Shown piece by piece: positions 1-63,700 of a stretch of 64,000 bases of DNA. Under the pieces are notes generated by a model, which saw nothing but the letters and a program-made list of their open reading frames with translations, searched no databases and was not told the DNA's origin. Source of the stretch: Candidatus Omnitrophota bacterium (GTDB lineage: Bacteria; Omnitrophota; Gorgyraeia; Zapsychrales; JAKLDJ01); assembly GCA_022703585.1 (NCBI GenBank), contig JAKLDJ010000001.1, positions 182,891 to 246,890 on the forward strand, in the 5' to 3' direction. Both the position numbers and the translations under genes were made by a program. Numbering within the stretch: position 1 is the first letter of the stretch; every line of letters starts with the position of its first letter.

Positions 1-600
1 CAGATCTTGGGGCGTGATCTTATCCATCGGTGTCGGAACGATAGGAATTACTGGCATATTTTGGGCGGCATTCGGATCTCCAGGGTTAGGGCGCATAACC
101 ATCTGCCTGTCCTTTGATGCCATCAGAATGACCGTGCCCTCGGGAATAATCAGTTCATCCAGCCATGGCGGAACAATAACACGGCCCTTACCGAAGTTAC
201 ATACGGCCAATAAGAGCCTCCCGGGATCAAAGGGCCTGTAATATTCTTCCAAAAATTCTCCGACAGGCCGCCCGTTTTTCTTAAGACAAAGCATGCTATC
301 CTGGGAAGCATAACCGTGCAGTTCCAGAATATTTATATCTTGAAAAACATGATATTGGCCGCGAGTCGCGCTGACCAGGTAAACCATGCCTTTCGAGTAA
401 TGTTCCAGTTTCGGATAATAGAAAGACGGAGCATCATCGGGGACAATGCCAAGCACCCTGAGCGTTTCTGCAAGCTCCGTGTACATTCTAAAGACAGCGC
501 CAAGGTCATTCTTGACTTCGGAGTAAATATACTGAAGATAATCCGGCTTATAAATACTGGTAGAATCTGATGCGTCTGCTTCGGCGGTTTGGGGTATCGT
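1..600 (-). other. C-terminal-side domain of unknown function, preceded by a signal-anchor-like segment; a second copy lies at 10363-10960
   Basis: Verified translation includes ...GRPVGEFLEEYYRPFDPGRLLLAVCNFGKGRVIVPPWLDELIIPEGTVILMASKDRQMVMRPNPGDPNAAQNMPVIPIVPTPMDKITPQDL. I could not assign a family. Confidence 0.4.
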
Positions 601-775
601 GCCAGGTCCGGATATAACCGACAGCAAGACCAGCGCCAAAATCAAAACAGGACGTCTCGCCCGAGAGATGTGCCGCGCTTCGCCGACGGCGCGCGAAGAA
701 AGAGGATTATTGTCCGTCCGGATCATCCCCAAAATGGGCCCGGACCCGATGAGGCCTAAAAGACTAAAGAGGGCC
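1..775. repeat. Direct repeat copy A of an intragenic segmental duplication (partner 10363-11137, about 98-99% nucleotide identity)
   Basis: Positions 1-775 align base for base with 10363-11137 with only a few mismatches (e.g. tactgg vs tgctgg, ataacc vs atgacc). Identity ends at 775/11137. The copy may extend beyond the window start. Confidence 0.9.
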
Positions 776-3700
776 GACCTCGTCCCGAGGAGCCATGACA
801 ATAGGGACTCGGCCCCGAGGGAGGCGGGCACAAAACACCCCAAAGCGCCGGAGGTGTCTTTTTTCTCAACCACAGGCGCCGACAAAAGACGCCGGGGGTC
901 AGTCTCGGCTTCAGAAATCTCAGAAAACCATTCCTTAAAGAACCGGAGATTACCGGCCATGGTTATTAAAAGCCTTTTACAGGCAATTAAAGTCATGTAT
1001 TCCATTTTTTCTTTTTCGTCCGCCGTGCCGATCGCAGTCCGTTTGCCCAAATCATTTTTGATAATACGGCTTCTAAAGAGGTGCTCAATGTATTTCACCG
1101 CTGCGGGCTCCGTGAATCTACGCCGCGAGAAAATCCCTAAGTGCTCCGCGGCCCATTTCACGATAAATTTCTGGGCCCATTGCTGCATTTCGGGATGGAG
1201 CCCGGTCAAATCCCTCAACCGGGACTTGATTTCCTTATTGGCAGCCGCCAGATTTATTAAACTGAAGAAATTATCCGTCAGAATCTTGTAGAGCTCATCA
1301 AAATCCTCGCTGCACCCAGCGATCAGGAAAAGCCGGTAAGCCGTATTCTCGATTTCCGCGTTATCGGTTTCGAATTCTTTTAATACAGCGGCCCGGCGCT
1401 GTATCTCTTCGGTAGTGAGCTTCATGATTCCGGACAAATCTTCCAAAATGACATCGGCGCGCCGGGCCGCGCGAAACTTAAGCTCCCCGGCAGATTCCTT
1501 GGGCGCTTTATGTTCTTCTCCCCGGACAAAAGTTGACTCACCTAAATGATAAGTCCGATTTTCATTTCCAAAGCGCTCAGCCAGCGGATGATCGCGAGGA
1601 ATATTCAGCGGATAAATATCGTAGATATGCTGGGGTTTTAATTCTTTGGCATTCAGGATAGCAAATAATTTTTCTTTCTGCTGCGGATCAAAATGTAAGA
1701 TTTTAGGGAAATAGCGGTAACGGCCCCTGGCCGAAGCCCCTTTCCATACCGCCAGACGATAAAGGGCCTCAATTTCTCCCCGCGTCCATTGTCCTAAATT
1801 CACTGCCCTTAAATAGCCCACGACCGTCGAAACAGCATCTTCTTTAAAAAGTTTATCCAGCTTCTTGGCTGTGTCCTTGTCAAAATCCGGATAAACCGCC
1901 ATAAAGAGTGCCACGGAACGGTTCTTGAGAGCCTGCTCTATAAATATCCTTTCCATGGCCTCAAAATGGCTTGCGTCCACTTCTTTGAGCCCGGTTAATT
2001 TCCTGAGCTGGCTGAGATCAAACATCTGCCAATTTTGAAGGACCACTTCGCTGGCATAGAGAGTGAGATGTTTTGCCATGACCTTTAATCTCTTATGGTG
2101 AGCGGCATTGCCGGACTCTGCCGCGCGAACCATTTCCTCCAAAACAGCATGCGAGAGAAACGGCCGGTGCTGAAATTCTTCATCACGGTCAAAGGCAAAA
2201 TCTTCGTGGTTGGCGGCAATTTCAGGATCAATCAGAAATTCCAACGTTTTTTGGGAAAGGGCTGAATGCATCAAAAGCCTGCCAAAATGATCCGGATGAG
2301 AATCCAGTGAATTAAAAATACTTAACGCATTCCACACCGTTTGTCCGGATTCTTCTTGAAAGTGGAGAGCAAAATAGCTCGTGGCATGGGCATATTCGGA
2401 GTGCGCGGCCCCGGCAAAAGAAGCCAAAAACGCGCCCATCTTCCGGCCGAATCTCTGGGGTGCCATTTCCATCAACAAATTCAATGTCCTGGTACCGTCC
2501 ACGTCAAGACGGTTGCTGTAATTACCCTCATACTTTGTCAGGGAATAAAACGCATGAGACGCCGGAATTTGTTCACGCTTATCTGTTCTCCTTGAATAAC
2601 TGTAAAATTTGACCGTGCCGTCCTCCGCTATCTCGGCCTCGCCCCCTGAGTAATAGTCAAACAAGAAATCATCATTCAGGAAGCTTCGGCGAGAAGCCGA
2701 TAAAACAGTTTGAAGAATACACCGCGTCCGGAGCAAATTCTTAAACGTCCACTCGTGGCCCATGGCGCTGCCTTTTTCATCCCTCCATACATGCCAATGT
2801 TCTTTATCAAGCACCTTCACAAGATGCTCAATAAAACGCTCCGGGTTAATTTCTCTTCTGGCTGCCAGGACATAATACCGGTTCATGACCGCATCTTTAT
2901 GGTTATTCCAGTCCTCTTCCGCAAGATTCTCAACGGCCAGGAAAAATTGTTCTGCCGGCATACCGGAAAAAGATTCTTCTGCGCCGGGCCGCGAAAAATC
3001 AAATCCGGGCAGGCAAAACTGGGTGGTTCGATATTCTTCCAAGGCAGGATTGATCGGGACAACGCCTTGATATTCCTGGATAAACTGGACAACAGCGTTA
3101 TAGGTAAACAGCATGCGCAAAACATGCCGTATCTGCTGACGGCCTCCGCATAATTCATAACCTTTATTGCTAAAATACCCCCGGCGTAAGACAGTGTCAA
3201 ATTTCATAAAGCGCCAGGTGATCTTGTCGGCAAACATCTCATAAAGCCCAGAATGATTCATGAAGAAATGCGGCTCATCCCGGACAGTTTTTTCTGTCTT
3301 GGTTTTCGCAATATTGTCAAAATAACCGACGCAGTACGGGTCGGCCGACAAGGGCGATTCGCCCGTGCGGACGGCAAATTCCAGGATAAAGGCCACCGTC
3401 GAGTAGCCTGAAATAAAACGGAAGGCCTCTCCCGGCTGCGGCTTCAGCTGAGGCAAAAGCGTTTCCCTGACTCTGTCAATATTGTCTTTAAAGCGATTAT
3501 CGGTTTTATAGGAATAATGAAGGCTTTGCAAATAACGGTTATGAAAATCAATCCAGCGCTCTTTGTCCGGGATATCGCCTTTTCTTATTTCCGTTGAGGT
3601 ATAAGCACTGCGCATGATTGTGCCGAGAGATTCGTCGTGCATGGGGTCCCGGTAACCACAGCCCATCTCAATGAGTACGATTTCCTGCTCGATCCCCAGG

Positions 3701-6700
3701 GCAATAAGCAAGGCATGGGCTGCTTGATATAGCGAGGTGTCCTCAAGCAAAAAGACCCAGGTTTTCCCGTCGCGGGGGATACTGGCCGCGCGGATAATCA
3801 ATTCAAAGATATCCCGGTTAAGTTCTGCGAAAGAAATCTTTCCGTCATCGAAGAAAACCGGATCATCGGTTTCCGGAGGATTATACGTAAAGCGCATATT
3901 GCCTTTTCTTAAAGCCGCCGCACATTGCGTGCTCATACCAGGCAACTGCTTGCGTTCTTTCTCGCTATCGCATTGATCAATCACGCCTCGGGCGAAGGAA
4001 TCAAAGCGTACTGCCATTTCCTGTGGAGTTAAGACCCGCAGTTTACCGCTGGAGTCTCTGACAAAAAGCGAAGCCATAGGCTCAAGAAGATACATTTGCG
4101 CTGCCCGGGAAAGATCCAGCGCCGCATCCTCGGCCTTTTCGTCCTCCAGAGGGGCAGAGAGTAACGGTGTCTCCACGTGCGCTAATTGCGGCACTTTCTC
4201 ATCCGGATTACTTAACAATCCCGGGACATAAGCCATGTCCAGGTCAGGGTGGTCTACGGACTTTCCAAAATACTTTGAGATTGAACCCGATAAACTTTCT
4301 TCAGGCGAAGTAATACTTTTAATCAGGTTTTCAAAATATTCCTTGACCCGGTCTTTTAACCAACCTCTTTCGTTCTCTTTTACTGTTTCATCATGACGGT
4401 CAGCCATGGCCTCAGCCAACGCCTGAAGGTTCCGGGTGAACTCAACATGTTCCTGGTCCAACGGATAGAGGCTGAAGTCATGGATGCCATTATTAAAATG
4501 ATGGGTTTGACTATTGAGCGGTACCCCTTCATCGCTTAAAACCCAAGCGGCGTTTTGATAAAAGACGATCAGGAAGCTTTTTTTGTGGATCTTGATTTCT
4601 CCGACCCAGGCGTCATCGTTGATTCTGAATATACTGGAATCATAAATGTCCACATAATGCGTTAAGGCCAACGGTAATTGATTTCGGCTAATAAATTGCC
4701 GGACTGCTTTTTGTTCGCGCCGGTTAAATTTCTTGCTTTCATCACTATTCGATTCATAAAAATCATTCTTGATAAGATATCCGCTCAATCGTTCAATAAC
4801 CTCTACGACAAGCCTGGCCTTTTGAACGGTAGGCATAACGTCGATACCACCCAGGAAGGTGAGGGTTTCGTAGGTGCGAGCCAAGCGTACGGCTTCAAGA
4901 TAAAACGGCCTTAAATATTGGGGAATTGATTTTAAAAGGCCAATTGCGGACGGCTTCCCTAAACGCAGCAGGGCAAAATCAATCAGGATGTGTTCGGCAA
5001 CATAAACCTGCGACGAAACGCGCTTGGGCACATCTTTGACGGCACCGTCTTCACCGAGAAGCCCGAGTTTTTCTGCGAGCGCGGAAATCCTCTTGTCCGA
5101 ACCTTTGGCAGTCTTCAATTCCCGTGCCAATACGCGCAGCTTCCGGCGGTCAATGAGCTCTCGGATTTCTTTGCGGATTTGATTTTCCGCTTTGCCTTCG
5201 AGAATGTCCTTTGTCCCGTCGGAAACCAGCCCTAAGACAGACAGGCCCGCCAACACAGCAGTGGCGGGCAGGCCCGTCAGCCCCGTTAGAAATGTTGAGG
5301 GCAATAAGAAAGTTGTTAAAGTTTCTAACGGGGCCAGGGGCAACGAGAAAAACGCGAGGCAGCCTAATGTTTCGATGCCTCGAATCATTTCATCTTGCTT
5401 TAATTTTCCGCTGATAACAATAGCAAGTTGCTCGTATACAACTGAGAAAAAAAGTTGAGAAGTTACATAGTCGGACACTCTTATGCTGCCCAACCCGCAG
5501 TTTTCAATGCGTAAGACGTGCGTGCCGCTTCTTACGAAATAGAGCTGTTCATTGTACCTGCCTCTTGAAAGGGGTTTGATAGCGGTCCATAAGTCCTCAC
5601 TAAATCCTGCAATATTCGCAGTTTCATCGTAATGGATAACGCCAACAAGCTTTCCTGCAGAGTAGTCAAAAACAAGAAGATGGCATCCCGGAGGTTTGTT
5701 AAAAGCTTCCGAAAGAGGGGGACACTTTTCCTTATCCCAGCGGATGCTGATTTTGACTGATTCGGGATCTAGTATCGTCCGATGCAGATAAAGCATGACC
5801 GGATTATTAGTCCCTTTGTAATACACTATTCCTCTGGAAAGCGCGTGCTGACGCAGCCAACCGAGAATAGCCTTGGCAATTCCTTCTATTTGAAAACAGG
5901 ATTGTATGTGCAGGTGTTCCAATAGCAATTGAAAGCCACCAAGATAAAAGACTAAACCCGACGTGCGGCTTTGGCCCGGATCATCGATTCTCAGGTTATC
6001 CAGCCATATTTCATATTCCATGCCATTCGAAAAAGGGTCGCTTGAGCGGACGATTATAATGGTATTGCCTCGATGGGGTATCAATACCTTGACAGGATTT
6101 TCATTTTCATCGCGCCATTCTTGGGTTCCGTCGAGATACGCCACCCTGCGCGTCCACTCTTTCCCTTGGGCCGTATCGTCATCCGCGCCTTCTCGCACCA
6201 TTCCCGCGATAAAGACGGCGGGCCCCGCCAGAAACAGCGGGGCGGGCAGGCCCGCCAAGGGCAAGAAGAGCGACACAAAACACCCTAAGCGCCCTTCATC
6301 CTGCGCGGTCAGTTGTTGATAGATCTCCTGCGCGCGGCGCTGCTGGTCTTCGGATAACCACGCTACAGCGAGCCCATAACTTTTTGCTTCGAGATTCGGG
6401 TCAGGCGAAACAGTATAACGGGAACTGACTTTATTTGTCTTCTCATCAAAATCAACATCGGTTTTCCATAAATCAAACCCGAGTTTTTGCGCGGCAAGCT
6501 TAAGCCCGTCGCGGATATGGGTATTAAAGATAACCGTGACGTTTTGCTGGCGCAGGTAATGCAATACCGCCAGCTGAATCGCCGCCAATTCGAAATTATC
6601 GGTGCCGTGCAGCTCATCTAAAATAAGCAGGCTATCCGGCGAGACACTATTAATCATATCCGCATACTGTTTGAGAATATTAAGAAAATAACTTTCGCCG

Positions 6701-9700
6701 GTTTCGGTCACATTGCGGCCGCCAAAAAACGCCCCGATTCCGCCGAATCTGCTCATGGTTAAATCACCCGAGACATAAAAACCATGCCGGGCAAAGACGG
6801 CATTGATAAAACTATTAAGCATCAAGACACTCTTGCCGCTGGAATTGGATCCGGTTAAGATAAAAACCGGTTTTTGGGGGTTAACCGCAAACGTCTGCGC
6901 CACACCTCCCTGCAAAAACGGCCCACGCCCCCAGAAAAATGAATGGTTCGGGAAGAAGGGCACGCTATTTTCTAATCTAAATGTTCGATACTCATCAACG
7001 AGAGTCGGCGGCTTGATAGAATTCAAAATGACAGAACGGGCAATACCGGTAAATTCATCCACCCCCCTAGCAATCATTTCAAAATCTTTCCCAAGATGCT
7101 GGCAGGCCTCGCCCCATTCAGCTTCCAATCTTTCCCGTTCTTTCTTGCTTAAACCGGCAGGATCAACGGTATATTTTTGGCGCATCTCATCCAGCGCGGA
7201 TTCCTTTTTCTTCAATAATAGTTTTGTTTTGTCAACCAGGGGCTCCTGCGGCAAGGTCTCAAGGTGCTCGATAAGCAATTTCATTTTTTCTGCAAGCGCG
7301 TTGATCTTTTTCTCATTTTCTTTAACATCATATCGCGCCCAGCGAAATTCCCGGTCGATACATTTATTGACCGACGAAAGAAGTTCGGTAATTTTTTTAA
7401 GGTACTCTGCGCCCTGGGAAACAAAAAGCGCAGTCAGGCGCAGGCGGACATCAACCGCATCCTCCTGCGCGGTATCGTCCTCTTTTTCTGTCTGCGGCGC
7501 GGTTGTATCCCTGCCGCCTAAAAGGGACCCAAGAATTTCTTCTTTATCCGTCGGTTCTTCAATATTATCTGCATCGACATCCCCGGTAAATATGCCGAGC
7601 AACCGTTCCGGGGTCTTACGGAACGCGAAATGTTCCCCAGGGTAGAGATTAGCAAAAACCACTTCAAACATTGAAAAAGCCGCGGATTTCTTATCCAGCT
7701 TCAAAGAGGATGATTTGGAATCGCCCATTTTCTTAATCGGAATCTCCTCAATATCGCCCCCCTCGATAATGCAGCGATAATACGCCCGCGCCAAAGTAAT
7801 CATCTCCTTAGGAAACCCGGCCTGGCGCATTAATTCAATCGCGTAGCTGTGTTTCGCGATGCCGGGCACCAGTCCAAAATCAGGAACAATCCGGCCCTTG
7901 TTCTCTTTAACCGTATGCATAAAGGGCTGTTGGCCGGTGCGCGCCTGTAACAACTCGTACATTTTCTTCAAGTGGCTGGTAACAATAACCGTGGCGCCGC
8001 TACGGATCAGATCTTCGATAAGGACCGTGGCAATCGCCACCAATTCGTGATAATCCGTACCCGTCGGGACTTCATCAAGGATAATCAAATCTCCGGGCCC
8101 GGCCTTTTTAATCAAGTCGGTTAATTTTTCAATCAACATCCCGAAATAACCGTATCCTTTGTGCAGCTGTTCCGGCTCGGGAAAGACCGTGTAGATATTA
8201 CGAAAGACACCGATGGCCGGCGCGTCATCGGGAACCGGCAGGCCAACCTGGGTATAAAGCGCGGCACGGCCAAGGCCGCGGGCAGTCGTGGTTTTTCCAC
8301 CCATGTTGGGGCCGCTCAATAAAAGCGCATTATGCCCGCCGCCTAAAGAAATCTCGACGGGGTGAATGCCTTTTAAATCATCCTGTTGTTCTCTTTCGCG
8401 TTTCCGTCGCGTCTTCGCATCAAAGGCCTCAAGGAATCCATCGAAGATGTCACGGTCCGGTTTTGGCTGGAAGGCACGGGCAATGAGAACCGGGTTGCGG
8501 TAACGTGCCAATTGTATAGTGCCGGTAGGCTGCATGATATCGGCAAAACGGTAATTATTCTGAACGGCAAAAAGGGCAACACGCGCGTAATAATCAATTT
8601 CTGCCAAATAATTCTGCATCATCCCTGCCGGGAATTGGCGCAGGAACGAATGCTTGTCGCCGCTATTTTTCGCGCGCCGCCTTGAGGCGTAGGCCTCGTC
8701 TCGTTCCCGGCGTTGACGCCCCGCAGCTTGCCGAACAAAAGAGTCCAGACGTCTTAGGCCGCCTAAGAAGCCATCTGCATCATCATCGTCTTCTACATCC
8801 AAATCGTCATCGTCTGAAGAATCTGAAATTTCTTCCTCATCTTCATCCGGCTCGCTGTCTTTTTTGGCGGCTTTTTGTTGACGCTTCTCAAACAAACCCG
8901 GATTTTGAGGATACGGGTCCCCTTCTATGTGAGATTCGATGTTAATCACCCATAAATCGGATAATTTCTCCACCAGCGAAGAAAATTCTTTTATAACATC
9001 ATCAAAGAGCCCCTGCTCTTGAAGCTGTTGCTGTATTTCCTCCTCCATACTCGGCTTATCATTGTCCGAGTCATCGTCTTCATACAGCGCGCTATAAAGG
9101 TTACGCCCCTTATCGCGCCGATGAGAAGCATTCTTTTCCCGGTGCTTTTTAAGAATTTCCGGAGCGACAAAAACATTCGCATCGACGCGCCAATCTCCCA
9201 CAGCATTTAAGAATTTCCTTCGTTCCAAAAATGGCTTTAGCTCCGGCCGGCGTAACGTGACCTGAATCTTTTCTTTCCATCGTGCCATAACCGGAGAATC
9301 ACTCTCGGGCAATGCCTGTTCGACAGCCTCCAGGCACAAAATAACTCGTCCCAGCGCAATCAAAGCAGGCGCCACGTCGGGATAAGCCTCATCGAATTCC
9401 AGGGGTCCGTCGTTCCATTGCCCCTTGGATTCACGGTCCAAAATACTACTCCTCTCTTTCTTTTTGGGCACAAAGAACGGATAATGGTAGCGTCGTAACG
9501 TGCGCAGCTCTGAAAGAAAGTCTTCTTTTTCTTTATGATAGCGCGCGATTAGTTTTGTAAGCTGTTCTAGCGGATTGTCTTCGCTTGTTCCCTGAGCGGC
9601 AATCTCCATCAGGCTTTCGATGGCACGCCGGGCTATTAGAATATCCTTGTGCTGCCTCCAGGGGCGCAAGAGCCTTTGTTGCAAAATCCTTTGCACGTCT

Positions 9701-54700: not shown

Positions 54701-57700
54701 TTTCCTTTGATGATGCCGTAACGCTTGATCTCATCTGGATGTTCTTCAGCGTACTTGCAAAGACTTGAATAAGTAATTCCTGTAACTTTAGCTGCCCCGG
54801 CTATATTAAGTCCTCTCAATTTCTCCTGGCCGGCCTGGGCCAGGAGGGCCGCGATTCTTAACTCCCCTGCACCCTTGACGATCCCGTAACGTATAAAATC
54901 GTCGGGGTGCCGCCGAAGATGCCTGGCGAGAGATAGAATTTTTACTCTGATAATCCTGGCTGCCTGGGTGACGGTGCGGCCCTTAAGTTTTTCCGGGCCG
55001 GCCTGGGCCAGAAGTACGGAGATTTTGGATCTCCTTTCTCCCTCTTTTATTTCGTAGAGTTTACGATCTTCCGGATGCTCATTAAAATATTGCAAAAGGC
55101 CGCCCTGGCTTACCCCGATTAGCGCAGCTGCTTGAGCAACGGTAAGGCCGCGAAGTTTTTCCACTCCCATCTGGGCCAGGAGGCCGGGAATCCTGGACGC
55201 TCTCTGCCCCCTGGTTATTCCATAGCGTGCGGCCTCGTCCGGGTGTTTCCTGAAATATTGAGAAAGACTTGTGTCACTCACCCCTATCACTTTGGCCGCC
55301 CTAAAGATGCTGAGGCCTCTTAATTTCTCTATCCCTGCCTGAGCCAGGAGATCGGAAATTGCCACCTGTTTCGGACCCTTGACGATCCCGTAACGATTGA
55401 TCTCATCCGGATGATTCTTGAGATATATTTGAAGGACACCTGACCCTGTTTTGATAACTTGAGCAGCCTGAACAATATTAAGGCCCCTCAATTTTTCTAT
55501 CCCCGCCTCGGCCAAAAGGCCTGGGATACGGGAATAAATGCTATCTCTCGCCTTCTTTCTCTCCGACGGAGACGGCATCACAACCCCTTCATAAATGAAA
55601 TAGGCCTGGTTGATCCCGACGCCCAATGCCGCGGCCGCGCTCTTAAGATTCTCATACTTCTTGCCGAATTTACCCTCCAGCATCCCAACGATAACAAGAC
55701 GTTGCGCCTGTCTAAGAGTGGGTAACGCCTGCGGCTCCGCGGCAAAGAGGCCGGCAAATTCAAGATAGCATTGCCTAACCTCGTGGGCAGCCACAGAGGC
55801 TTTGTCAACATTCTTTAAGGCGTTGCCGTAGACGGCTTCCGAGATATCCAGGAGCCTGGCGGCAATCCCGTAATTTCCCCGCGCCAGGATATTCGCCGTA
55901 TAGGCAAAAAGGATCTTGGCAAATTCAAGATAATACCTCTGCGGTAAATGGCTTCTCTCAAAACTTTCTTTAAGAAATCTCATGGCTGTTTCGATGTCGC
56001 GGTGATTACCATTCCCTCCATTTGAACCGCGCCGCTTCTCATAGGTTCTCAAGAATTCAAACGAGATACCGGCTTCGTGCAGAAAATCAAAAAAGCGCTG
56101 CGTATCGGCTCCGGAAAGACCGATAATCCCTCGAGAAGTCAGGCGCACCGGTTCGTAGAGGATGGCAGCCAGTTTTTGTTCTGTCCAGATTCGGTAGGCC
56201 TCGGCATCGGCCTCACGACTTTGATACTGCGCCTCCTCTAAAAAGAAGGGAATTTCCTGTAACAGCGCCCATGCGGCATCTTTGGATTTACAGATCAGGT
56301 GGACTATGCCCCAGAGAATTTCAAGCCGCTCAACGATAAAATTAAAATTCCTAAGCACCTCTGTGCGCAACCTGCGGCTGCCTTCTTCCGTTGCGGCCTG
56401 GGCCTGTTCCAAAATCTGCTCAACCGCATCCCCTTCAAAAAGACGCGGCAAATCACCGCTACCGGATCTTTCTAATTCTTTAAACTGCGGGACAAAGGCC
56501 TTTAACAAACGTTCCTCAAGATTTGAATAAATACGATAGCTCCCCGGCGCCCCCTGACGGGCCGCGCGCCGCTCGGCCTGGGTATCAATACGCCGTTCGT
56601 CGTTAGCCATGAGAATAACGTGCAGCCCTCCGCGCGCGAGCGCCGCCTCATCAAGAACAATGTCTGTCCCGCGTCCGGCGACATTGGTTGCGACCGTGAC
56701 CGCGCCCAAAGCACCTGCCGCGGCAATGATAACAGCCTCCGCCTCATCGTCGAGGCCGTCGAGGACCTGGTGCTCTATTTCCATCTGACGCAACAGCACG
56801 CTCACGGCATGAGCATCCCGGATAGTCATTGTCACCGCCAAAACCGGACGGCCCTTTTTGTGTTCCTCGATGATCTCCTGGGCCATAGCCGCATATTCTT
56901 CTGCCGCGTTTTCCAGGACCGTCGTCGGATATCGCGTCAAACGTGACGATCTGTGCGGAGGAATTGCAACACTTTGAATGCCATAGTTTTCTTCTATCTC
57001 CGCAGCCTGCGCGCCGATGGTTCCACTCATGCCGCTCACCACTGCCCCCAGCGCCTTCAGGCGCCGATAAAACATCGGAAAAGTAGTCAACGCCTCGGCC
57101 CGATAGGGAAGAGTGATGCCCACCTGCGCCTTGATCTCGACAAATTGATGGAGATAATTCATCCACATGTGGCTGTGTTTCCTGCGGCCGGTGTAAGGGT
57201 CGATAATCACAATGCGCCCTCCTTCACGGATAAATTGCACATTCTCTTCATAAAACTCCTTGACCACAAGCGCCGTCTCCAGTAATCGCCGGGTCACCGG
57301 CCGCTCAAAATTGACAAATAATGACTGTGCCTGCGCAGAGGATATAGCAGCAGTAATCCCTTGCGGGGTTAACATGGCCGTCCGGTGATCCCGATTAAGC
57401 TCATAATCTCCGGGCGTATTTAGTTTCTCGGCTATTTCATAAAGCGCCTTTAGGAAAATCGGGAGCATCTTGGCGCTCTCTCCCTTCGAGAGAATCAGGG
57501 GTGAAGCCGACTCATCAACCCACACGCTGTCGGCCTCATCCACAATCACAAAGGACGGCGCATAATGAATCGGTATCCTATAGCGCGGAGCAAGGCTTAA
57601 ATTCGCGCTTAGATAATCAAAGACCGCCGCGCTTTTTTCGGCATAGAGGATATCAGCGCCGTAAGCCTGTTTCTCTTCCTTCTGAATGAGACTCTGCGAG

Positions 57701-60700
57701 AATCCCTTGACCCTATAATAGCGCCCTTCACAGACACAACTGACCGATACGTCCAGCGGAGAAAGAATCTCCGCGGCCTGCAGGGCATCACGCCTGGCCA
57801 GGTAATTGTTGAACGTATGAACGTGCGCGTGCACTCCTCGCGGCAACGAGTGCACATAAGCGGCCAGGATTCCGGCGTAGGTCTTACCTTCACCGGACTC
57901 CATTTCGACAGCGAAACCTTGATACAAACAGGCCGCGGCCAGGATCTGCTCGTCATAAAGCCGTTTCCCGTTCAATCTTCTGATGCGTTCCCGGAGAATG
58001 GCAAAAGCTTCAACCAGAACTTCGTCAAGAGTATCCGGCGTGGCCCGTTTCTTCAACTCCAGGGCTTTTTGATACAAGCCACTGTCCGAAAGCGCCCGCA
58101 GCGCCTCTTCTTCGGCCGCGACCTCTTGAACAATCCTTGTTAATTCGTCCGGCGGAGCGGGCAGACGGCCTCCGTCGATAGAAGAGAACGCTCCGACATT
58201 ATCCGGCGCCTGTGTCCGTGCATCTTCCTCATCCCTTACCGTACCCGGGAAGGCAAAGACGAACGGCAACAAGGCCAAAATCCAAATCCCCGGCCACGCC
58301 AAGATGAAACCGCAAAAATCTTCTTCCCCGAAGGGCAGCTGCGCGTCCTTTAGGGGTAATTCCGACTGGGTCCGGTCTAACCCTAAAATAAACCGCACAA
58401 CCGCTAATTCATCCGGATCGCTCAAATCCTTGGAATAAAATTCCATCGCATAAACCGCGGCCTTGGGAGTTATCCCTCTAAATTTCCGGAGATCATTGCG
58501 CAGACGGACAATCGCGTTATAAAACAGGTCCTCCGGCGTCCAATGGTCCAGCGCCCGGGCAATCATCATAGCCCATCGAATACGCTCACCGATTGTAGTC
58601 AAACGTGCGCCCGTGTCCCTTAACAGGGCAATCATGGTATAGCCGTGACACGGCAGAACATCAGCCAGAATCTCATGATAAAACTCTTCTTTAACAGCCC
58701 AGGGAATCGTTCGCGTCGCGGCAACCCGCTGGCCGACAAAATCGTTTAAGGCTCTTTCAATCTGCTCATACGCCTCCCGGACTTTTTCGCGCTCACCCGG
58801 CATAAGCCAATTGCCTAACTCTGCCGCCCAGGCCGTGTCCGTCCCGTCAGGATTGTCGTGCAAAATTTCAGAAAGTATCCGGGGCAACGTAGCCCGCAAC
58901 CGGCTCTCGGTAAAGGGCTGAATAAACAGGACATACGAATCCAACCCTTCTTTCGAGAACCAATCATTACTCTTAAAGAAAATATTCCGGCATAGGCGCG
59001 CAAATTCATCCCAGTCTTTTAAAACGCTCTTTACGCCGCTCCTGAAAGGCCTTTCAAGGTCAATCCGATTTTGAATGATGTCGACGATGTCCCGTAAGCC
59101 TTCCCGGAATTCTCGGCGGGTACGGGCAAACTCATAATTATGCTCAAGGACTTCATCCGCCCTGAAGAATTGAACTTCGCGGGCAGACTCCTCTCCCGGC
59201 ACCTGAACCGTCATGAAACGGCCGATATCCGAGCGATAAAATCCGGAAACCGCACCTGTAGCCTTCTTTCCGTCGATGTCGATAAGCACAACCTGGTCAC
59301 CCGAAACAAACAATGCCTCTTTCTTTGCCGAAACCTCCGCATCGATTTCCAGGGGAATAACGCGCAAGATATTGCTGAACTTGATTCGATAAACTTCTCC
59401 TCCCGGCAATAACCGAATCAACGGCCGGTCATCGTTTTCAACCTCCGCCGGCTCTAAGATAACAACCTTGCATCCCGAAACCGTAGTACGGTCAATAACC
59501 ACTTGGTCTGTCAGGGTAAATTGCATATAGGCAATCAGCCCCTTGCGCAGGCTAATCTGCGCTGCCGGCTCCCGGTCGCTCATCAGGTACTGGAATATTT
59601 GATTTTCCGGGACAAGCGGTTTCAGCCCCAGCTTTTCCAAAAGGCTATTCACGCGCGCGAACTCTTCTGGGGTAAGCTCCGAGCTCGGTTTATCCAACAG
59701 AGAACTAAGCTCCCTTAAAGATGCATTAGTATCATCGTTAACGGCCATGCCCAAAACCGGCAATAACATCAGCGGTAGCATAAAGCAGGCAAGATTTTCT
59801 CCTCTTTGTTTTCCGGCAATCATTTCATTTCTATCGTCAAACAACGTCAATCCAAGCTCAAATCCAAGCTCTTGGGTAATAACACGCCGGTATTCTTCAA
59901 ATTCCTTTCGCGTATACATCATAGTAAGATCAGCCAGAATCCCGGGCAACCTGGTGCCAAAAGGAGAAACTTCTTCATTCGCAATTTTAGATTCTTTAAG
60001 TAATGCCTGCATTTGCGTGTTACCGCCGTACAGGATGGTGCACATGGCCCCGGGCGTTACGATACGATGGCTGACCATTGTGCCTGTTATTCTGAATATA
60101 TCCGCCAGGGCCAGTAAATCGCCCGTCGAAGGCAAGCTGTCTGCCGTCATATTTCGCTGAACCGGTAAAATAACCCCATCTTTGGGATGGGTATGCCCTT
60201 GCTCTTTAAAAGCGGCCGTTGTCATCTCGGAAAAATTATCCGTCATTTCAGTAAGCGTTTTTAAATCGGCCCACAGCGGAATAAGCTGTTCCCCTCTAAG
60301 CGTCGACGTAAGCAGACCCCGCTCGACACCGTCTTTGAGATCTCTGCCTTTTCGAAAATACCAGACATCCTCTTGCTCTAACCGGCCAAAAGTAATCTCG
60401 GAATCTGAAGCTGTTATGGCCAACGCTTGATAAAAAACATCTGTCGCAGTAATCGAACCCGGTATACAAACAACTCTTAATTGTTCATACGGCTTAAGCG
60501 CGCTTAATCGGATCAAAAGATCTTGGAGAGAATTAAATGTTATCGTCTTTGTCCGCGGAATATATGTTCCCATCTTTTCAAGTTGAAATATCAAGTATTC
60601 AACCACATCCCCAACAACATCGCTAAAGGTGGCCATCACAGCAGGAACCTCTTTTAAAAACGGCAACAAAGCGACCCTCCTCGTATTCGTTGCCCACTCA

Positions 60701-63700
60701 AGCTCCTCGCTCACCAAAAATCTTTTACAGATATCGTCAACGTTTTCCCTGCTCAGAATTACCATCTCAATACCATTGATACGCGTGAGCCGTTCGGTGA
60801 AAATCCTTCGGACAATATCAAACTCATCATCCGGGGCCATAATGCCAAGGAAGTGCGGGTCATGCGCCAAAACAAGCAATAGCTCGTCGATCTGCTGGTT
60901 AACCTGCGCCCTTCCATCCTCCAGGCTGCCGATGACGGGTAAAACAACCAAGCTAATTAGCGCCCCCAGGGCAAAAATGTTTTCAAGCCCGGCAAAAGGC
61001 AAGATCAAGGCAGCAAGCCCTTGCTGTCTTGATTGTTCGGATCGTTTTTGCTTCTGTGCTCGGTTAGAATCCGGCGTATAGCCCAAATCTTCAAACGGAC
61101 TTACATATCCTTCACCGCTATGAAACGGGCTTCGAACCGCGGCTCTTTTGATTCTCCTTCTGACTTGGAAAAGTAATTCAATATCGGCTGCTAAACCCTT
61201 GAACCGGGGATCGCGGTCTAGCTTTCTTCGATAATCATTAATGATGCCACTGACACGATTTCTTGATATCTTAAAATGGGCAGCCACCTCCGTGTTCGAC
61301 CGGCCAAGAACAAGCCATTGATTGATAATGCGCCGGTTTCTATCAGATAACCCCAGCTGCGCCATCGTATAGTTCAGGTCAGAGCTTACTCTCTCCCACT
61401 CATCATTATCAATTAACATATCAAGAACATTCCTTGTCCCGTCGGGGACATCGCCGTTCCTTAAGCCGTCAGTCGACAGGCCATTGCCGTTTTCTTCTTG
61501 CTCGGAAATCGCCTGGAGCGATAGCGTACGCCGCTGCCGCTTCATTTCCTTGAAAACTCCCAGGCCTCTTAAATATGTGATCACTTCATTGCGGATAACA
61601 CCCCTTCGCGCAGTAGGATATTCTGACAAGCGACTGCCGTTTAAGAGGGAAATAAAACTGGGGAAACCTAAAGTGCCGCCCCGGCGCATAACATAGGTCA
61701 CGGCTCTTTTAAGCGCGAGATCACCGATAAAGTTAATTTCAACGCTCGAGATTGTTTCCAAACCATGATTTCCCCAAGTGCAATAATTCAAATAGTACCT
61801 GACCCGGGCCCGCAATAAAGGAGCTAAAACTTCCCTTAAGGCTAAGTAGGCACTGCTGTTCCCCTTTTCGATAAGCCTTAATAGCGCCTTCCCTCGTTCG
61901 TATTTGCCTGCGATGCCAAGTGCTTCTTCAACTTCTTTTTCATCCGCATACGTCCCTTCCCATTGAGGAATCTTTCTTTTGTCAGAAGGTTTCTCCAATC
62001 CTAAAATTTTGCGTGCGTTTGTCATTCCGCCGACCATCCTCACCGCAATTCTTAGCCGACCGGTCAGTTGTCCGTCGATAAATGTCTCAACCGGCCTTCC
62101 GGATTCTTCCCATACCTTCTTTAACCAAAGAGCTTTGACCTCAAAAGGGACATACCCGGAGACTATGACCTCCCCGTGTTTGAGCCTTCGCTCTATCCAG
62201 CCAAGCCAAAACTCTGCCAAAGTCCTGAATTCCGACCTGTCCTTGGAGGCTGATAAATCATCCTGTAGCCGGTAAAGCGTTTCAACGGAATATTCCAGGA
62301 TATGCTTCCGGTAGGAATACAAAAGCCCCCGGAGGCTCTTGCCGCCAAAAATCCCGTTTCCGGATTGCGTGAAATCGTCCGGAATCAAATCCCAGATAGA
62401 ATCTTTCTTGACCGGCTGACTTCTAAGAAGAACATGGATAAATCTTCTAAAGATGGCGGTCTTAACTTCAGGAGATAGTTTGTGAATATCCTGCCAAAAA
62501 TCCTTTTCTCCCGAAGACCGGACTTCCCTGAACCGATTGACATAAAAGTCACAGACACTCTTTAAGGCCGGCCGCCAGTAGCGCCTAAGATCACCAATAT
62601 GAACCCCGAGATCTTCCTCGATGCGAGAGACAACCTCGCTGCGGGACAGAGGGCCTGATGTCGTGCTCATGACCAAAACAATTGCCTGCACGACAGAAAT
62701 ATGTTCAGCGATAATCGATTTTGTCTCACCGCTGCTCCTTTCCAATGCCGCCTGTAATATCTTCGGCCAGTGACAAGAAATCGCCCTTCCTTTGAGATGA
62801 ATTTTCTCGGCCAACCATACTTGAGACGGCACCCGGCCGTTTTCCTCTACGGTTCTTATAAGCAGGCTGACCGCCTCATCTAAATCAAATCTCCCTAAGG
62901 AGGATTGTTCCCCCTCCCACAACCTGATAGCTTCTTTGACTCTTTCATCACCCCGCGCCTTCAAGGTTTCCAGAACCTTCGACCAATAGCTCCCAATCGT
63001 ATCAGGATCAACGCTAAATACTTTGCCCAGCTGAGGCTGGGTGGGCAGATAGACTCGCGCAGGATCGTTTTCAAACAATGACATAATGTAATTGGCAATA
63101 GCCTCAAAAGGATCAATATAGTACTGCACCACCCATCTTAGTTTTTCATTATCCTGTTCCATCAAGGCAGGCAAAATTTTGGTCGGCCAGTACGCCTTAA
63201 TCGTGCGCAAGCTGACACGGGCTTTAAGAGCAACTGTTTCCTGTGTCGGAAGTTTTCCAGTTTTTTCAAAGATATTTTTGATGATCCGAACAGTTTTTTT
63301 CAGGTCAAATGTGCCGCGGGAGGCACGCTGTTGGTTGCGGGCGCGGACAATTTCCGCTACTCTGGCATCGCCCTGTTCTTCAAGGCCGCCTAAGATTTTC
63401 TGAAGATGAAGCCCTGCGGTAGAAATGCTGACCCCAACCCCATCGGCAATAAAGGGAATGGTGGGCATTTTTTTGGCTTGCGGATTTTTACTGAAATAAT
63501 CCAAGAGAAAATCAATGGTCCTCTGCAAATCAAAATCACCGCTGGGTTTTCTTTCTTTGGCCATACCGATAACAGGGAAGAAAGAACAAAGGGCCGCACC
63601 AACTGTCCACTGACCAAAATTAAAGAGGGCCGCTGCAGCACCAGTTCCAACCCCACCAGCCACGGAAGAGGTTATTAGAACTGTCAACTCAAAGAGAGTT

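Follow-up and report, generated by a model that had tools for sequence, protein, structure and literature searches.

Glutamic intramembrane proteases of the CPBP family are known or predicted to process signals that combine a Cys motif with a hydrophobic segment, and some of these signals keep a Pro inside the segment, as in JDVT (DP at +9), Synerg (an invariant Pro) and CGP (C-G-P) (10.1101/2023.06.07.544157). MrtX cleavage was previously shown experimentally and requires the Cys (PMC11980579). For giant proteins of Omnitrophota, the published comparison is the 'Archaeovorin-type', in which cytoplasmic enzymes were predicted to be extracellular and the question was posed whether and where the chain is cleaved (West-Roberts et al. 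2023; 2026 complete-genome preprint). A sequence motif for the TM-like segments is described in neither of these two works.

The window, the whole 64,000-nt stretch of DNA analysed here, is filled entirely on the minus strand by an ORF without stops (21,333 codons, 21,333 aa), in which residue i is encoded by window bases 64000-3i to 64002-3i. Met at aa 14 is a possible start, and a strong N-in TM helix was predicted near the N-terminus, at aa 74-98. The full chain has at least 21,000 aa and probably about 29,000 aa in total. About 30 unrelated enzymes are carried by this single gene within the window, and its cargo domains include methyltransferase, peptidase, PPDK and HEAT domains. Two SecA-like motors are also present, 39-47% identical in BLAST pieces and 42% identical over the full alignment; no scaffold/wing domain was detected in motor 1.

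1..63999, minus strand: giant ORF, uninterrupted, open at both window ends
56650..58146, minus strand: SecA-like motor 1 (SecA_DEAD, PP_bind, P-loop_SecA)
47446..49020, minus strand: SecA-like motor 2, paralogue of motor 1
27700..28305, minus strand: CPBP / Rce1-like glutamic intramembrane protease domain, aa ~11899-12100, with EELIFR, FALIH and HGLHN motifs

A short hydrophobic module recurs along the chain. A first-pass annotation of the same DNA had put it at about 28 copies, roughly one per 2 kb, and 28 were indeed found, each with an independent E-value of 3e-3 or below against a profile built from curated copies and spaced at about one per 760 aa (2.3 kb).

63559..63594, minus strand, aa 136-147: module 1, ALCSFFPVIGMA, short; preceded by two N-terminal TM-like segments
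60922..61020, minus strand, aa 994-1026: module 2, GLAALILPFAGLENIFALGALISLVVLPVIGSL, without Cys
59740..59793, minus strand, aa 1403-1420: module 3, LACFMLPLMLLPVLGMAV, minimal type
58237..58317, minus strand, aa 1895-1921: module 4, FCGFILAWPGIWILALLPFVFAFPGTV, ~30 aa upstream of SecA-like unit 1
52051..52149, minus strand, aa 3951-3983: module 5, LNGFLPFTLMVPFMLAGDLSAIYLALLPVLGTV, without Cys
49609..49674, minus strand, aa 4776-4797: module 6, LLGAFLPGMDILFLGLWLTGMV, GAF variant
44566..44628, minus strand, aa 6458-6478: module 7, LGCFILPFMAGMSAVFLVGMM, between SecA/HTH unit and 251-aa methyltransferase unit
43684..43812, minus strand, aa 6730-6772: module 8, LRCFVPLADLF...AGPAVFIAGLPVIFLG, long; RC variant
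42145..42204, minus strand, aa 7266-7285: module 9, LECIAFFFPALLFGLAGTIS
40546..40581, minus strand, aa 7807-7818: module 10, LGCFFVPWVIPE, truncated copy, N-cap only
37723..37788, minus strand, aa 8738-8759: module 11, VSCFVFPLLGLPILPLLSLGAV, after sigma-70 unit
36160..36219, minus strand, aa 9261-9280: module 12, VSCLVFLTLAPLAAIAGMVF
34765..34824, minus strand, aa 9726-9745: module 13, LHAFIIPDMFFFILPLLGVL, without Cys
32866..32931, minus strand, aa 10357-10378: module 14, IGCLVLPFALGPLMFMSLAGAV, between PPDK_N ATP-grasp unit and HAD + methyltransferase unit
28306..28425, minus strand, aa 11859-11898: module 15, LGCLTPFALWPLLFVPLAPLEILTTFLLPSTFLTGLVGMV, palindromic insert; directly upstream of CPBP unit
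27091..27141, minus strand, aa 12287-12303: module 16, LGCFVFPVFSLFLLGVI, minimal type
22900..22989, minus strand, aa 13671-13700: module 17, LRAFMFFGPLMFLPASAFAGLSEAGPLGMI, without Cys
20632..20778, minus strand, aa 14408-14456: module 18, IRALLPGFGLESLLMLALAPVEILTTFLLPSTFLTGLAGLGALFVTGMT, palindromic insert; without Cys
19273..19347, minus strand, aa 14885-14909: module 19, LGCFLPGVVFLSSAGLPVVFMTGMT
17215..17277, minus strand, aa 15575-15595: module 20, LECCLMMPLAGMSFLFLAGMT
14656..14787, minus strand, aa 16405-16448: module 21, LSCFILPLPLLEILTTFLLPSTFLAGLAGLPFLGLPAVFMVGMV, palindromic insert
13498..13563, minus strand, aa 16813-16834: module 22, LGCFMLPLTLPGLPFLPLVGMV, five Pro
12430..12489, minus strand, aa 17171-17190: module 23, LGCFIPGLIFLPVLMAGIAP
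11083..11172, minus strand, aa 17610-17639: module 24, LACFIPGLLPASALFNLLGLVGAGPILGMI
9880..9999, minus strand, aa 18001-18040: module 25, LRALMFLSPLAFLSASALFNLLGLVGAGPFLMFLPVMGMV, without Cys
6196..6288, minus strand, aa 19238-19268: module 26, LGCFVSLFLPLAGLPAPLFLAGPAVFIAGMV
5221..5367, minus strand, aa 19545-19593: module 27, LGCLAFFSLPLAPLETLTTFLLPSTFLTGLTGLPATAVLAGLSVLGLVS, palindromic insert
721..843, minus strand, aa 21053-21093: module 28, LGCFVPASLGAESLLSWLLGTRSALFSLLGLIGSGPILGMI, in recent duplicate of module-24 region

The consensus consists of an acidic flank, an N-cap (T/S)-L-[G/A/S/R/E]-C-[F/L]-h-(h)-P, most commonly (T/S)-L-G-C-F-h-(h)-P, a variable hydrophobic stretch (10-40 residues), a C-cap h-h-G-M-[V/I/T], x(1-4) and then D/E. 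The Pro/Gly-rich core is very variable in length (12-49 aa), and relative to the Cys, minimal modules carry Pro near +4 and +9. Read from the list above, Cys is present in 21 of the 28 modules and replaced by Ala or Gly in 7, and each of the SC, RC, GAF and Cys-less variants reported at first pass is represented. A Cys at the N-edge (first four positions) was observed in 20/28 modules compared to 3.6 in within-module shuffles, C[FL] in 18 compared to 1.3, GM within the last five positions in 16 compared to 0.8, and Pro at positions 5-8 in 22 compared to 9.5. The whole ORF contained 17 occurrences of [LVI][GAS]C[FLIM], where 500 shuffles of the whole protein gave 1.7 (maximum 6), and every Cys inside an uncharged stretch of at least 14 residues fell within the first 8 residues of that stretch (23/23). 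Composition does not account for the motif, since the within-module shuffles fell short of it. Conserved caps around a core of variable length, beyond what composition gives, suggest that the modules are recognised by a machine and that bulk hydrophobicity is not what counts. None of the 28 copies matched any Pfam or NCBIfam model, Cys-type C-terminal sorting signals included, in agreement with the initial impression that this was no described sorting signal or linker.

The modules lie at unit boundaries. The first-pass annotation overstated this in placing one between essentially every pair of domains, as several inter-module units hold two or three domains (SecA with an HTH array; HAD with two methyltransferases; NagB-like with PIG-L). 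A single short module separates the SecA/HTH unit from a SAM methyltransferase, and another the ATP-grasp domain from HAD and the methyltransferases. In domain alignments, position 15 of the SecA_DEAD profile fell on unit residue 31, position 9 of the NagB-like profile on residue 25 and position 151 of the PrmA profile on residue 143, and one methyltransferase unit is 251 aa long. Judged from these alignments, the units look like whole proteins that start directly after a module. Shuffling of units as module-bounded cassettes was also seen.

The TM and amphipathicity check that had been proposed showed that the modules are not amphipathic and are poor canonical TM helices. Their cores contain 9.2% Pro, 11.7% Gly, 24% Leu and 11% Phe; many have only 15-20 residues between the caps, and many cores of 15-18 residues hold at least two Pro. 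Long modules are built from 9-20-residue hydrophobic pieces in series with single charged residues between them. A crude Hessa-scale sum gave a median of +2.6 kcal/mol for the modules compared to -3.7 kcal/mol for the N-terminal TM helix of the ORF. Acidic residues numbered 2.75 and 3.11 per 12-residue flank against 1.58 expected, about twofold on both sides and in line with the acidic flanks originally noted, with basic residues at background level, and this argues against positive-inside TM helices. The genuine TM helices of the ORF carry K/R flanks (KVNRRN before TM1, RARR before aa 17663, and the CPBP helices). In AlphaFold predictions made with the module alignment the core was not helical, at low confidence. 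Because neighbouring units alike depend on ATP, SAM or DNA, an alternating single-pass topology is functionally implausible (the parity argument). Substrates of intramembrane proteases are in general marked by helix-breaking residues in the membrane segment.

A module-profile search of 1.84 billion proteins (representatives), also proposed at the outset, returned only two relatives, P0001 and P0002. P0001, a fragment of at least 7,492 aa, is probably the 3' continuation (C-terminal part) of the window gene; BLAST between it and the window ORF detected modules and nothing else, and four of its eight modules lack Cys as read from its module list. P0002 (L029) is an independent giant-ORF fragment of 37% GC with unrelated cargo, so the motif is conserved outside this gene. 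Its modules read L-S-A-F, with Cys absent in 4/4. A strictly thiol-dependent mechanism is weakened because Ala or Gly replaces Cys in 7/28 modules here and in 4/4 in P0002. The profile retrieved no Archaeovorin-type giant proteins, and the cassette thus appears restricted to a lineage.

The CPBP domain encoded in the ORF matched the Pfam Rce1-like model (E = 2e-13), and its EExxxR, FxxxH and HxxxN catalytic motifs are all intact. It is weakly similar to MroQ, MrtJ, Mrt_core and MrtC, far under every curated Mrt/MroQ cutoff, and a domain search did not find it in P0001 (7,465 aa) or P0002, both of which are fragments. CPBP genes being common, a single one among about 40 units could be a coincidence, to which we would assign a low probability.

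Tentatively, and short of calling it probable, we propose to read the modules as cassettes at the junctions of a polyprotein that is tethered to the membrane. Each cassette, short, proline-kinked and uniformly hydrophobic between a small residue-Cys-Phe N-cap and a Gly-Met-aliphatic C-cap, would dip into the membrane from its cytoplasmic face, or form a re-entrant loop there, without crossing the bilayer as a helix, perhaps assisted by the built-in SecA-like motors. We infer from this that cytoplasmic-type enzyme units would all be kept on one side of the membrane. The N-cap at the membrane interface would be the recognition site for the cis-encoded CPBP/Rce1-type protease, which may cut beside the Cys or small residue and leave some 30 or more protein-sized units, each anchored via a hydrophobic remnant. 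If so, the modules would mark the points at which the membrane holds the giant chain and at which it may be cut. Observations in favour are the conserved double caps and their recurrence in the unrelated P0002, the non-canonical TM traits with helix-breakers, the parity conflict, the whole-protein-like units after modules, and a cis-encoded CPBP together with the signal type known for that family. Against it, Cys is not invariant, whereas MrtX and Rce1 depend on it; known signals for CPBP enzymes stand at the C-terminus with an Arg cluster and the modules are internal with acidic flanks; sorting-signal HMMs match no module; and the CPBP domain is below the Mrt/MroQ cutoffs, possibly coincidental, and missing from the fragments P0001 and P0002. 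Re-entrant stitches and processing cassettes, the two roles first suggested, emerged from testing as the two best candidate explanations, and they are not exclusive of each other.

The main rival keeps the membrane burial and drops the proteolysis: monotopic or re-entrant dips would pin one continuous chain cytoplasmically at ~30 points as uncleaved staples, and the result would be a membrane-bound carpet of enzymes with the caps as interface or turn elements or insertase recognition sites. This is possible, if doubtful. The physico-chemical evidence and the parity argument apply to it equally, the ORF itself supplies SecA-like motors with a preprotein-binding domain, and such segments in giant proteins have already been treated as membrane anchors (10.1101/2023.11.21.568195). 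Ala or Gly for Cys fits a small-residue interface role better than thiol chemistry, and an interior that tolerates in-frame palindrome insertion and large length changes is expected if only burial matters. However, plain anchors normally conserve hydrophobicity and not double sequence caps across lineages with unrelated cargo, and the strong Cys preference is left unexplained and the cis-encoded protease without a role. Ordinary bilayer-spanning helices, with consecutive units alternating between the cytoplasm and the periplasm or cell surface, are what TM predictors return for Omnitrophota giant proteins, with about one such helix predicted for every 1,000 aa (10.64898/2026.06.07.730766); high hydrophobicity with a low moment (the Eisenberg 'transmembrane' region) and Kyte-Doolittle peaks of 1.9-2.7 agree with this, and the SecA-like motors could export alternate units. 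We consider it unlikely given the short cores with two or more Pro, the acidic flanks without the positive-inside signal seen in the K/R-flanked helices of the same ORF, and the unexplained caps. SAM-, ATP- and DNA-dependent domains would moreover land outside the cell, and West-Roberts et al. report equally implausible localisations for their giant proteins.

Distinctly unlikely is a role as soluble recognition peptides, hydrophobic handles bound by the SecA-like preprotein-binding domains, chaperones or one another, through which the giant chain would be bundled, threaded or exported; they might, for instance, be export signals repeated inside the chain for its delivery into prey. Two SecA-like motors with PP_bind lie in the ORF with modules just upstream, conserved caps suggest protein recognition, and AlphaFold gave no core helix, albeit at low confidence. 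However, SecA-bound signal peptides have basic, not acidic, n-regions, about 30 exposed stretches so rich in Leu and Phe would be strongly aggregation-prone in solution, and no sign of a secretion context was seen. At the DNA level, the modules could be in-frame copies of repetitive or mobile DNA, or recombination joints, whose hydrophobic translation is tolerated without protein-level function. A 55-60-nt palindromic repeat inside four modules (15, 18, 21 and 27) is nearly identical between copies, synonymous sites included, further sub-pieces recur in DNA (families D6-D9), and units are shuffled at module boundaries. Assemblies also break at a module: the DNA of module 25 shares 98.7% identity with the 5' end at which JGI contigs L002 and L003 are truncated. 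Yet the codons of the LGCF cap differ between copies (codon table), most short modules have no excess RNA/DNA structure (several canonical copies have positive z-scores), the reading frame is preserved in every copy, the motif is retained as protein in the 37%-GC lineage, and the conservation of Cys, Phe, Pro and Gly-Met is at the peptide level. Codon divergence and peptide conservation already largely refute this highly improbable reading.

Compared to known systems, oleosin-, caveolin- and reticulon-type hairpins resemble the modules in being Pro/Gly-interrupted hydrophobic segments, and they enter and leave on the same side; at 30-70 aa they exceed the modules in length, each protein has only one, they are eukaryotic, and no sequence motif links them to the modules. 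In the eukaryotic CaaX box, as in the modules (CFML, CFIL, CFVF, CLVL), Cys is followed by aliphatic or aromatic residues and the protease family is the same. However, CaaX makes up the final four residues and must first be prenylated, whereas the module Cys is internal with a hydrophobic run of 12-45 residues, and no prenyltransferase was identified here. Viral polyproteins of the flavivirus and pestivirus type likewise yield many unrelated mature proteins from one ORF, with junction hydrophobic segments that anchor products and position cleavage sites and with the protease encoded within. Here the gene is cellular and roughly tenfold larger, neither its junction motif nor its protease class is related to the viral ones, and the viral segments are true signal/stop-transfer helices with alternating topology. 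Archaeovorin-type proteins share the giant size, about one hydrophobic segment per 1,000 aa, a divergent SecA_DEAD with PP_bind and no scaffold/wing domain, and methyltransferase, peptidase, PPDK and HEAT domains; the cleavage domains proposed by their authors, C39 and S8, are both absent from this window. CPBP-processed Cys-type sorting signals differ in standing once at the C-terminus rather than internally at ~30 per polypeptide, in ending in an Arg cluster rather than a G-M-h cap and acidic flank, and in their cargo, which here is cytoplasmic-type with no N-terminal signal peptide per unit. They have in common with the modules a Cys signature immediately N-terminal to the hydrophobic segment, in some types a Pro inside that segment, a motif common to cargo otherwise without homology, and a CPBP/Rce1-type protease encoded alongside, here within the same ORF.

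The window was occupied by one open reading frame of 21,333 codons on the minus strand, stop-free over all 64,000 bases and open at both ends, and a six-frame scan found at least 588 stops in each other frame. The GC content was about 50%, with a steadily negative GC skew. A candidate gene start was seen at the methionine at aa 14 (MACNDDD...; aa 14-98 correspond to window positions 63706-63960). No in-frame stop lay upstream of it in the window, and it is possibly the true start of the giant gene. A strongly hydrophobic transmembrane (TM) helix at aa 74-98, preceded by K/R, was followed by a Gly-rich hydrophobic segment and then by the first module. Pfam searches resolved the frame into a long run of unrelated, mostly cytoplasmic-type domains, all on the minus strand:

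SecA-like motors (SecA_DEAD, PP_bind, P-loop_SecA), two sets
52585-55716 (aa ~2762-3805), HTH_3/XRE-like tandem array of ~17 helix-turn-helix repeats
Sigma-70, regions 1.2-4
Class-I methyltransferases, several
PPDK_N ATP-grasp domain, HAD domain and HATPase_c domain
Peptidase M20/M28 and HEAT repeats
NagB-like and PIG-L domains, and adenosine deaminase
MutS_V/AAA ATPase domains, two
Rce1-like (CPBP) membrane protease, one

The helix-turn-helix repeats had a period of 168-186 nt, were mutually 44-60% identical, and followed SecA-like motor 1 inside the unit of that motor. A looser second series was seen behind motor 2. In the Pfam search, the scaffold/wing domain PF07516 matched neither SecA-like motor, whereas it was present in all ordinary SecA homologues. 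Archaeovorin-type giant proteins of Omnitrophota have been described with many TM-like segments, a divergent SecA that lacks the wing and scaffold, and PPDK, methyltransferase and peptidase domains (10.1101/2023.11.21.568195). The giant size, the many TM-like segments and the SecA_DEAD and PP_bind domains without scaffold/wing were shared by the window frame, whose predicted architecture resembles that of these proteins.

The first-pass annotation had described about 28 copies of a short hydrophobic module, lying between essentially every pair of recognisable domains. These modules were recovered when the frame was scanned for uncharged stretches and hydrophobicity peaks, and a profile HMM found 28 copies, about one per 760 aa. 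The statement that they separate each domain pair was slightly overstated, as several units carry two or three domains. In a MAFFT alignment the consensus opened with acidic residues and (T/S)-L-[G/A/S]-C-[F/L]-h-(h)-P, continued through a variable hydrophobic part rich in Pro and Gly, and closed with h-h-G-M-[V/I/T], 1-4 further residues and D/E. The pattern [LVI][GAS]C[FLIM] was observed 17 times compared to 1.7 in shuffled sequences, and every Cys within the uncharged stretches (23 of 23) fell among the first eight residues of its stretch. When residues were shuffled within modules, Cys at the N-edge (20 observed) and GM at the C-edge (16 observed) were expected only 3.6 and 0.8 times, respectively. 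The motif far exceeds chance and composition. Acidic residues occurred at about twice the expected frequency in both flanks and basic residues at background; per 12 aa, the C-flank averaged 3.1 acidic against 1.7 basic residues, and its mean net charge was about -1.4. On a reading of the aligned modules, the cap position was Cys in 21 of 28 modules and Ala or Gly in the other seven, and in all 28 the cap led into 12-45 uncharged, hydrophobic residues.

The length of the segments between modules ranged from 240 to 2,029 aa (median near 500), and several units started in a native-like manner: position 15 of the SecA_DEAD profile fell at unit residue 31, position 9 of the NagB-like profile at residue 25 and position 151 of the PrmA profile at residue 143, and one methyltransferase unit measured 251 aa in all. 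An ancient duplication related aa 486-2613 to aa 4971-7817 (window ~56160-62540 and ~40550-49090) through three module-bounded units with 24-47% identity:

aa 486-1021, minus strand, duplicate of aa 7294-7817
aa 1386-1873, minus strand, duplicate of aa 6739-7251
aa 1928-2613, minus strand, duplicate of aa 4971-5686

The order of the units was permuted between the two copies, the duplicate edges followed module boundaries, and modules were kept at the paralogous junctions. Being bounded by modules and permuted, the units behave as shuffled cassettes. A recent duplication (window 1-~1000 and 10363-~11400, aa 21052-21333 and 17609-17879) showed 92-99% protein identity and 100% identity over 300 nt. 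Its start coincides with a module, it takes in a classical TM helix with K/R flanks, RARR-PVLILALVLLSVISGPGTIP, and the window end falls within its second copy.

All of 1.84 billion representative proteins were then searched with the module profile in HMMER. Four hits had E up to 0.001, two of them genuine; P0003 and P0004 were rejected as low-complexity or repeat artefacts. One genuine hit, P0001/P0005, has at least 7,492 aa and comes from JGI metagenomes 3300009838 and 3300009776. P0001 contained eight or nine modules by the profile, four of eight without Cys, and in a BLAST comparison the modules were the only parts that matched the window frame. Its gene is cut inside a module at the contig end. 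On the corresponding contigs, L002 and L003 (Ga0116154_10000089, 155.7 kb, and Ga0116153_10000004, 530.6 kb), the ends lie within a module, and positions 1-150 match window 10044-9895 at 98.7% identity. The frame there (7,465-7,492 aa) encodes a response-regulator receiver domain, a TPR array, about eight modules and repeated K/R-flanked TM helices. Because the contig ends in a module, the 150-nt stretch matches and the window closes in the second copy of this region, P0001 most probably continues the window gene on its 3′ side, in the same organism or one very close to it, which would make the full protein roughly 29,000 aa or more. As probably the same gene, P0001 was left out of the independent relatives. 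The short-read assemblies of L002 and L003 break at the repeated module, and modules appear to be both joints for the duplication and shuffling of units and breakpoints of short-read assemblies. Downstream of the stop of the giant gene, L003 22647-32536 carries genes for two small PilZ-domain proteins, a GH94 (cellobiose/chitobiose phosphorylase-like) enzyme, a 1,147-aa PT-HINT protein and ABC sugar transporters; neither a protease gene nor a lipid-transferase gene was evident in this interval.

The other genuine hit, P0002 (MHA1675679.1), places the cassette outside the window gene. It lies on a contig of 5,141 bp and 37% GC (JBQSHT010000029.1, GCA_054386435.1) that is open in frame throughout, is annotated as 'HAD-IIIC family phosphatase, partial' and was binned to a Njordarchaeales (Asgard) MAG, the bin being uncertain for so short a contig. 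Its four modules read D-x-L-S-A-F-I-L-x-F-I-F-x-P-x-G-x-L-G-(M)-x-K/E-D/E. The small-small-Phe cap and the Pro at +9 are kept in them, as are the Gly-Met region and acidic residues on the flanks, with Ala replacing Cys in all four. The same contig encodes a polytopic membrane region of ~220 aa with no assigned family. P0002 represents an independent lineage, and its cargo is unrelated. With two relatives found, one of them Cys-less, the cassette is conserved but rare, and Cys is preferred but not essential.

Further searches returned no additional copies. Nothing was retrieved by word-indexed homologue searches, whether the query was a multi-module segment of 1,320 aa or the module alignment, and a search with the SecA-like region brought up ordinary SecA proteins alone, 31-36% identical, without any giant relative. 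A GTDB genome scan with an alignment of the SecA paralogues yielded one SecA-like frame of 6,177 aa (L001, CAYSSX010000005.1, locus positions 2198-20728), whose SecA-like domain was 33% identical to that of the window. No modules were found in this frame, so the cassette is not used by all SecA-bearing large proteins. Of 126 pattern matches in a metagenome scan with the module alignment, tblastn confirmed none; the degenerate DNA pattern LGCFxPGx[IV]F gave 25 matches, all by chance, in a metagenome collection evidently lacking the JGI samples of P0001; and scans of viral contigs gave no matches.

The module cores were composed of 24% Leu, 11.7% Gly, 11% Phe, 10% Ala and 9.2% Pro. Minimal modules cover the distance from Cys to Gly-Met cap in only ~15-16 residues and have prolines at about +4 and +9, as in C-FML-P-LMLL-P-VLGM, and long modules are chains of hydrophobic pieces of 9-20 residues with single charged residues between them. 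Amphipathic in-plane helices were ruled out, since the mean hydrophobic moment of the modules (0.26) was below the protein-wide mean (0.31) and their hydrophobicity was uniform. Canonical TM helices have about 19 or more hydrophobic residues with few breakers; many module cores had only 15-18 residues between the caps, and the best 19-residue windows of most modules contained 1-4 Pro. In a crude Hessa 2005 sum with approximate scale values and no position weighting, the best 19-residue window per module had a median of +2.6 kcal/mol compared to -3.7 for the N-terminal TM helix of the frame. The positive-inside asymmetry was also missing, as both flanks were net acidic; K/R residues flanked the TM helix at the N-terminus, the one at aa 17,663 and those of the CPBP domain (KVNRRN, RARR, SAKRYLKDSSRR) and not the modules. 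We infer that the modules seek the membrane or are buried in some other way, yet make poor canonical single-pass helices. AlphaFold models were uninformative for a module-CPBP-module fragment without alignment (pLDDT 41.6) and too weak for use for a single module with the 28-module alignment (pLDDT 60, no helix).

Four modules contained a DNA repeat of 55-60 nt:

28303-28391, minus strand, inside module 15
20653-20741, minus strand, inside module 18
14692-14780, minus strand, inside module 21
5263-5351, minus strand, inside module 27

The copies were near-identical, synonymous sites included, had perfect terminal inverted repeats of 14-20 bp (GCCCCGTTAGAAAT, 27 nt, ATTTCTAACGGGGC) and encoded PLE-ILTTFLLPSTFL-(T/A)GL. 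As RNA, the repeat folded with -36.6 kcal/mol (z = -3.2). It was not found in loci L001-L003 and had no Rfam match. Its appearance would fit the in-frame insertion of a MITE-like or palindromic element, or else a tract of gene conversion. RNA structure was rejected as the basis of the modules, as only the long modules with palindromic inserts were structured and the canonical short ones were not; Rfam gave no match for the modules. Internal translation starts at Gly-Met were also rejected, with a Shine-Dalgarno-like sequence at -14 to -7 of none of 16 Met codons compared to 6% of all in-frame ATGs.

The single CPBP domain (aa ~11899-12100) lies directly after module 15 and has all three catalytic motifs, EELIFR, FALIH and HGLHN. 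Its similarity to the CPBP families MroQ, MrtJ, Mrt_core and MrtC was weak and far below every cut-off, and the CPBP unit had no meaningful match among PDB sequences. Our tentative preference is that the modules are junction cassettes of a membrane-tethered polyprotein, with the N-cap cut by this cis-encoded protease. One frame of ~29,000 codons would be translated as a single chain and stapled co-translationally to the membrane by ~36 iterated cassettes, and its own CPBP/Rce1-type protease would cut the small-Cys-Phe caps to release at least 30 individual enzymes and regulators, among them SecA-like motors, a sigma factor, helix-turn-helix arrays, a MutS-like ATPase, a deaminase, methyltransferases and peptidases. 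The cleavage step is suggested by analogy, the presence of the protease and the conserved caps, and it is weakened by the Cys-less copies. If the same dips were left uncut, the chain would form a stapled carpet of enzymes, a possible but doubtful outcome. The membrane dip is common to the cleaved and the uncleaved reading, and it is the step that we consider best supported.

Topology bears on the reading in which the modules are true, alternating TM helices. A single short module divides the SecA/HTH unit from a methyltransferase unit and another divides the ATP-grasp unit from a HAD and methyltransferase unit; with ATP-, SAM- or DNA-dependent domains on both sides of single modules, strict in/out alternation would strand some of them outside the cell. 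A dip that enters and leaves on the same side is probably the simplest topology, and alternating helices are unlikely. A role of the modules as soluble-phase handles for SecA-like motors or chaperones is improbable. A reading at the DNA level, with the modules as neutral repeats or filler, would find repeated DNA in the four palindromic inserts, but the codons of the LGCF caps vary and the caps are also kept in a genome of 37% GC, and we regard it as very improbable. The cleaved polyprotein ranks narrowly ahead of uncleaved staples, followed by alternating TM helices, soluble handles and DNA repeats.

Giant microbial frames encode 10,000 to 147,000 aa, and whether their products remain single chains or are cleaved is a published puzzle; cleavage points that have not been identified hinder structural analysis, and TM predictions imply implausible localisations (10.1101/2023.11.21.568195). 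That study and a 2026 complete-genome preprint on such proteins describe TM helices but no sequence motif. A sequence-defined cassette provides cut sites in silico and target peptides for proteomics, and it is worth following up because the question of whether and where giant proteins are cleaved becomes directly testable. If cleavage is true, this would be the first defined processing signal of bacterial or archaeal giant proteins, CPBP/Rce1 biology would reach iterated internal signals, and a polyprotein strategy would operate in a cellular organism. If there is no cleavage, the cassette would still represent a new kind of membrane staple, short, kinked by proline and conserved at its caps. 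The module joints and breakpoints also bear on the assembly and annotation of giant genes.

Searches of the 28 modules against Pfam and NCBIfam matched no model, and the NCBIfam/TIGRFAM sorting-signal models gave no match at E up to 10. Several known signals were rejected on their defining features. A CaaX box requires a C-terminal tetrapeptide and all 28 copies are internal; the lipobox L-[AS]-[GA]-C has a basic n-region and an h-region before the Cys, where the modules have acidic or polar residues, with the hydrophobic run downstream. A Hint/intein G-C-F requires a Hint fold of ~130 aa, and here 12-45 hydrophobic residues follow the Cys with no Pfam match. The nearest match to 2A StopGo (D-x-E-x-N-P-G-P) was RTDNNPLS, which lacks NPGP, and the defining feature of prepilin G|F sites was missing.

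The closest known design is that of the Cys-type tripartite C-terminal signals, with a Cys signature, a hydrophobic segment and an Arg cluster. The sorting-signal literature describes single-copy, C-terminal signals only. The hydrophobic segment has a conserved Pro in JDVT, Synerg and CGP (10.1101/2023.06.07.544157), and cleavage of such signals has been predicted or shown for 'myxosortases' of the CPBP/Rce1 family (10.1101/2023.06.07.544157; PMC11980579). In these signals and in the modules alike, the hydrophobic segment follows the signature. The known signals sit at the extreme C-terminus, whereas all 28 window modules are internal and the true C-terminus of P0001, ~730 aa past its last module, is without one. 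An Arg-rich cluster follows the segment in the known signals, whereas the modules are acidic there, and the Cys signature is replaced in a quarter of the window modules, in half of those counted in P0001 and throughout P0002. That a cellular mega-polyprotein, made as a single chain, stapled co-translationally and self-cleaved at its caps, is the internal, iterated counterpart of these signals is a proposal that we make with doubt. The modules seem to share the design and the enzyme class of Cys-type signals but not membership, being internal, iterated, acid-flanked and not strict in Cys. The cassette lies outside all described families, and it resembles both the hydrophobic punctuation of giant proteins and Cys-plus-hydrophobic signals of the CPBP type.
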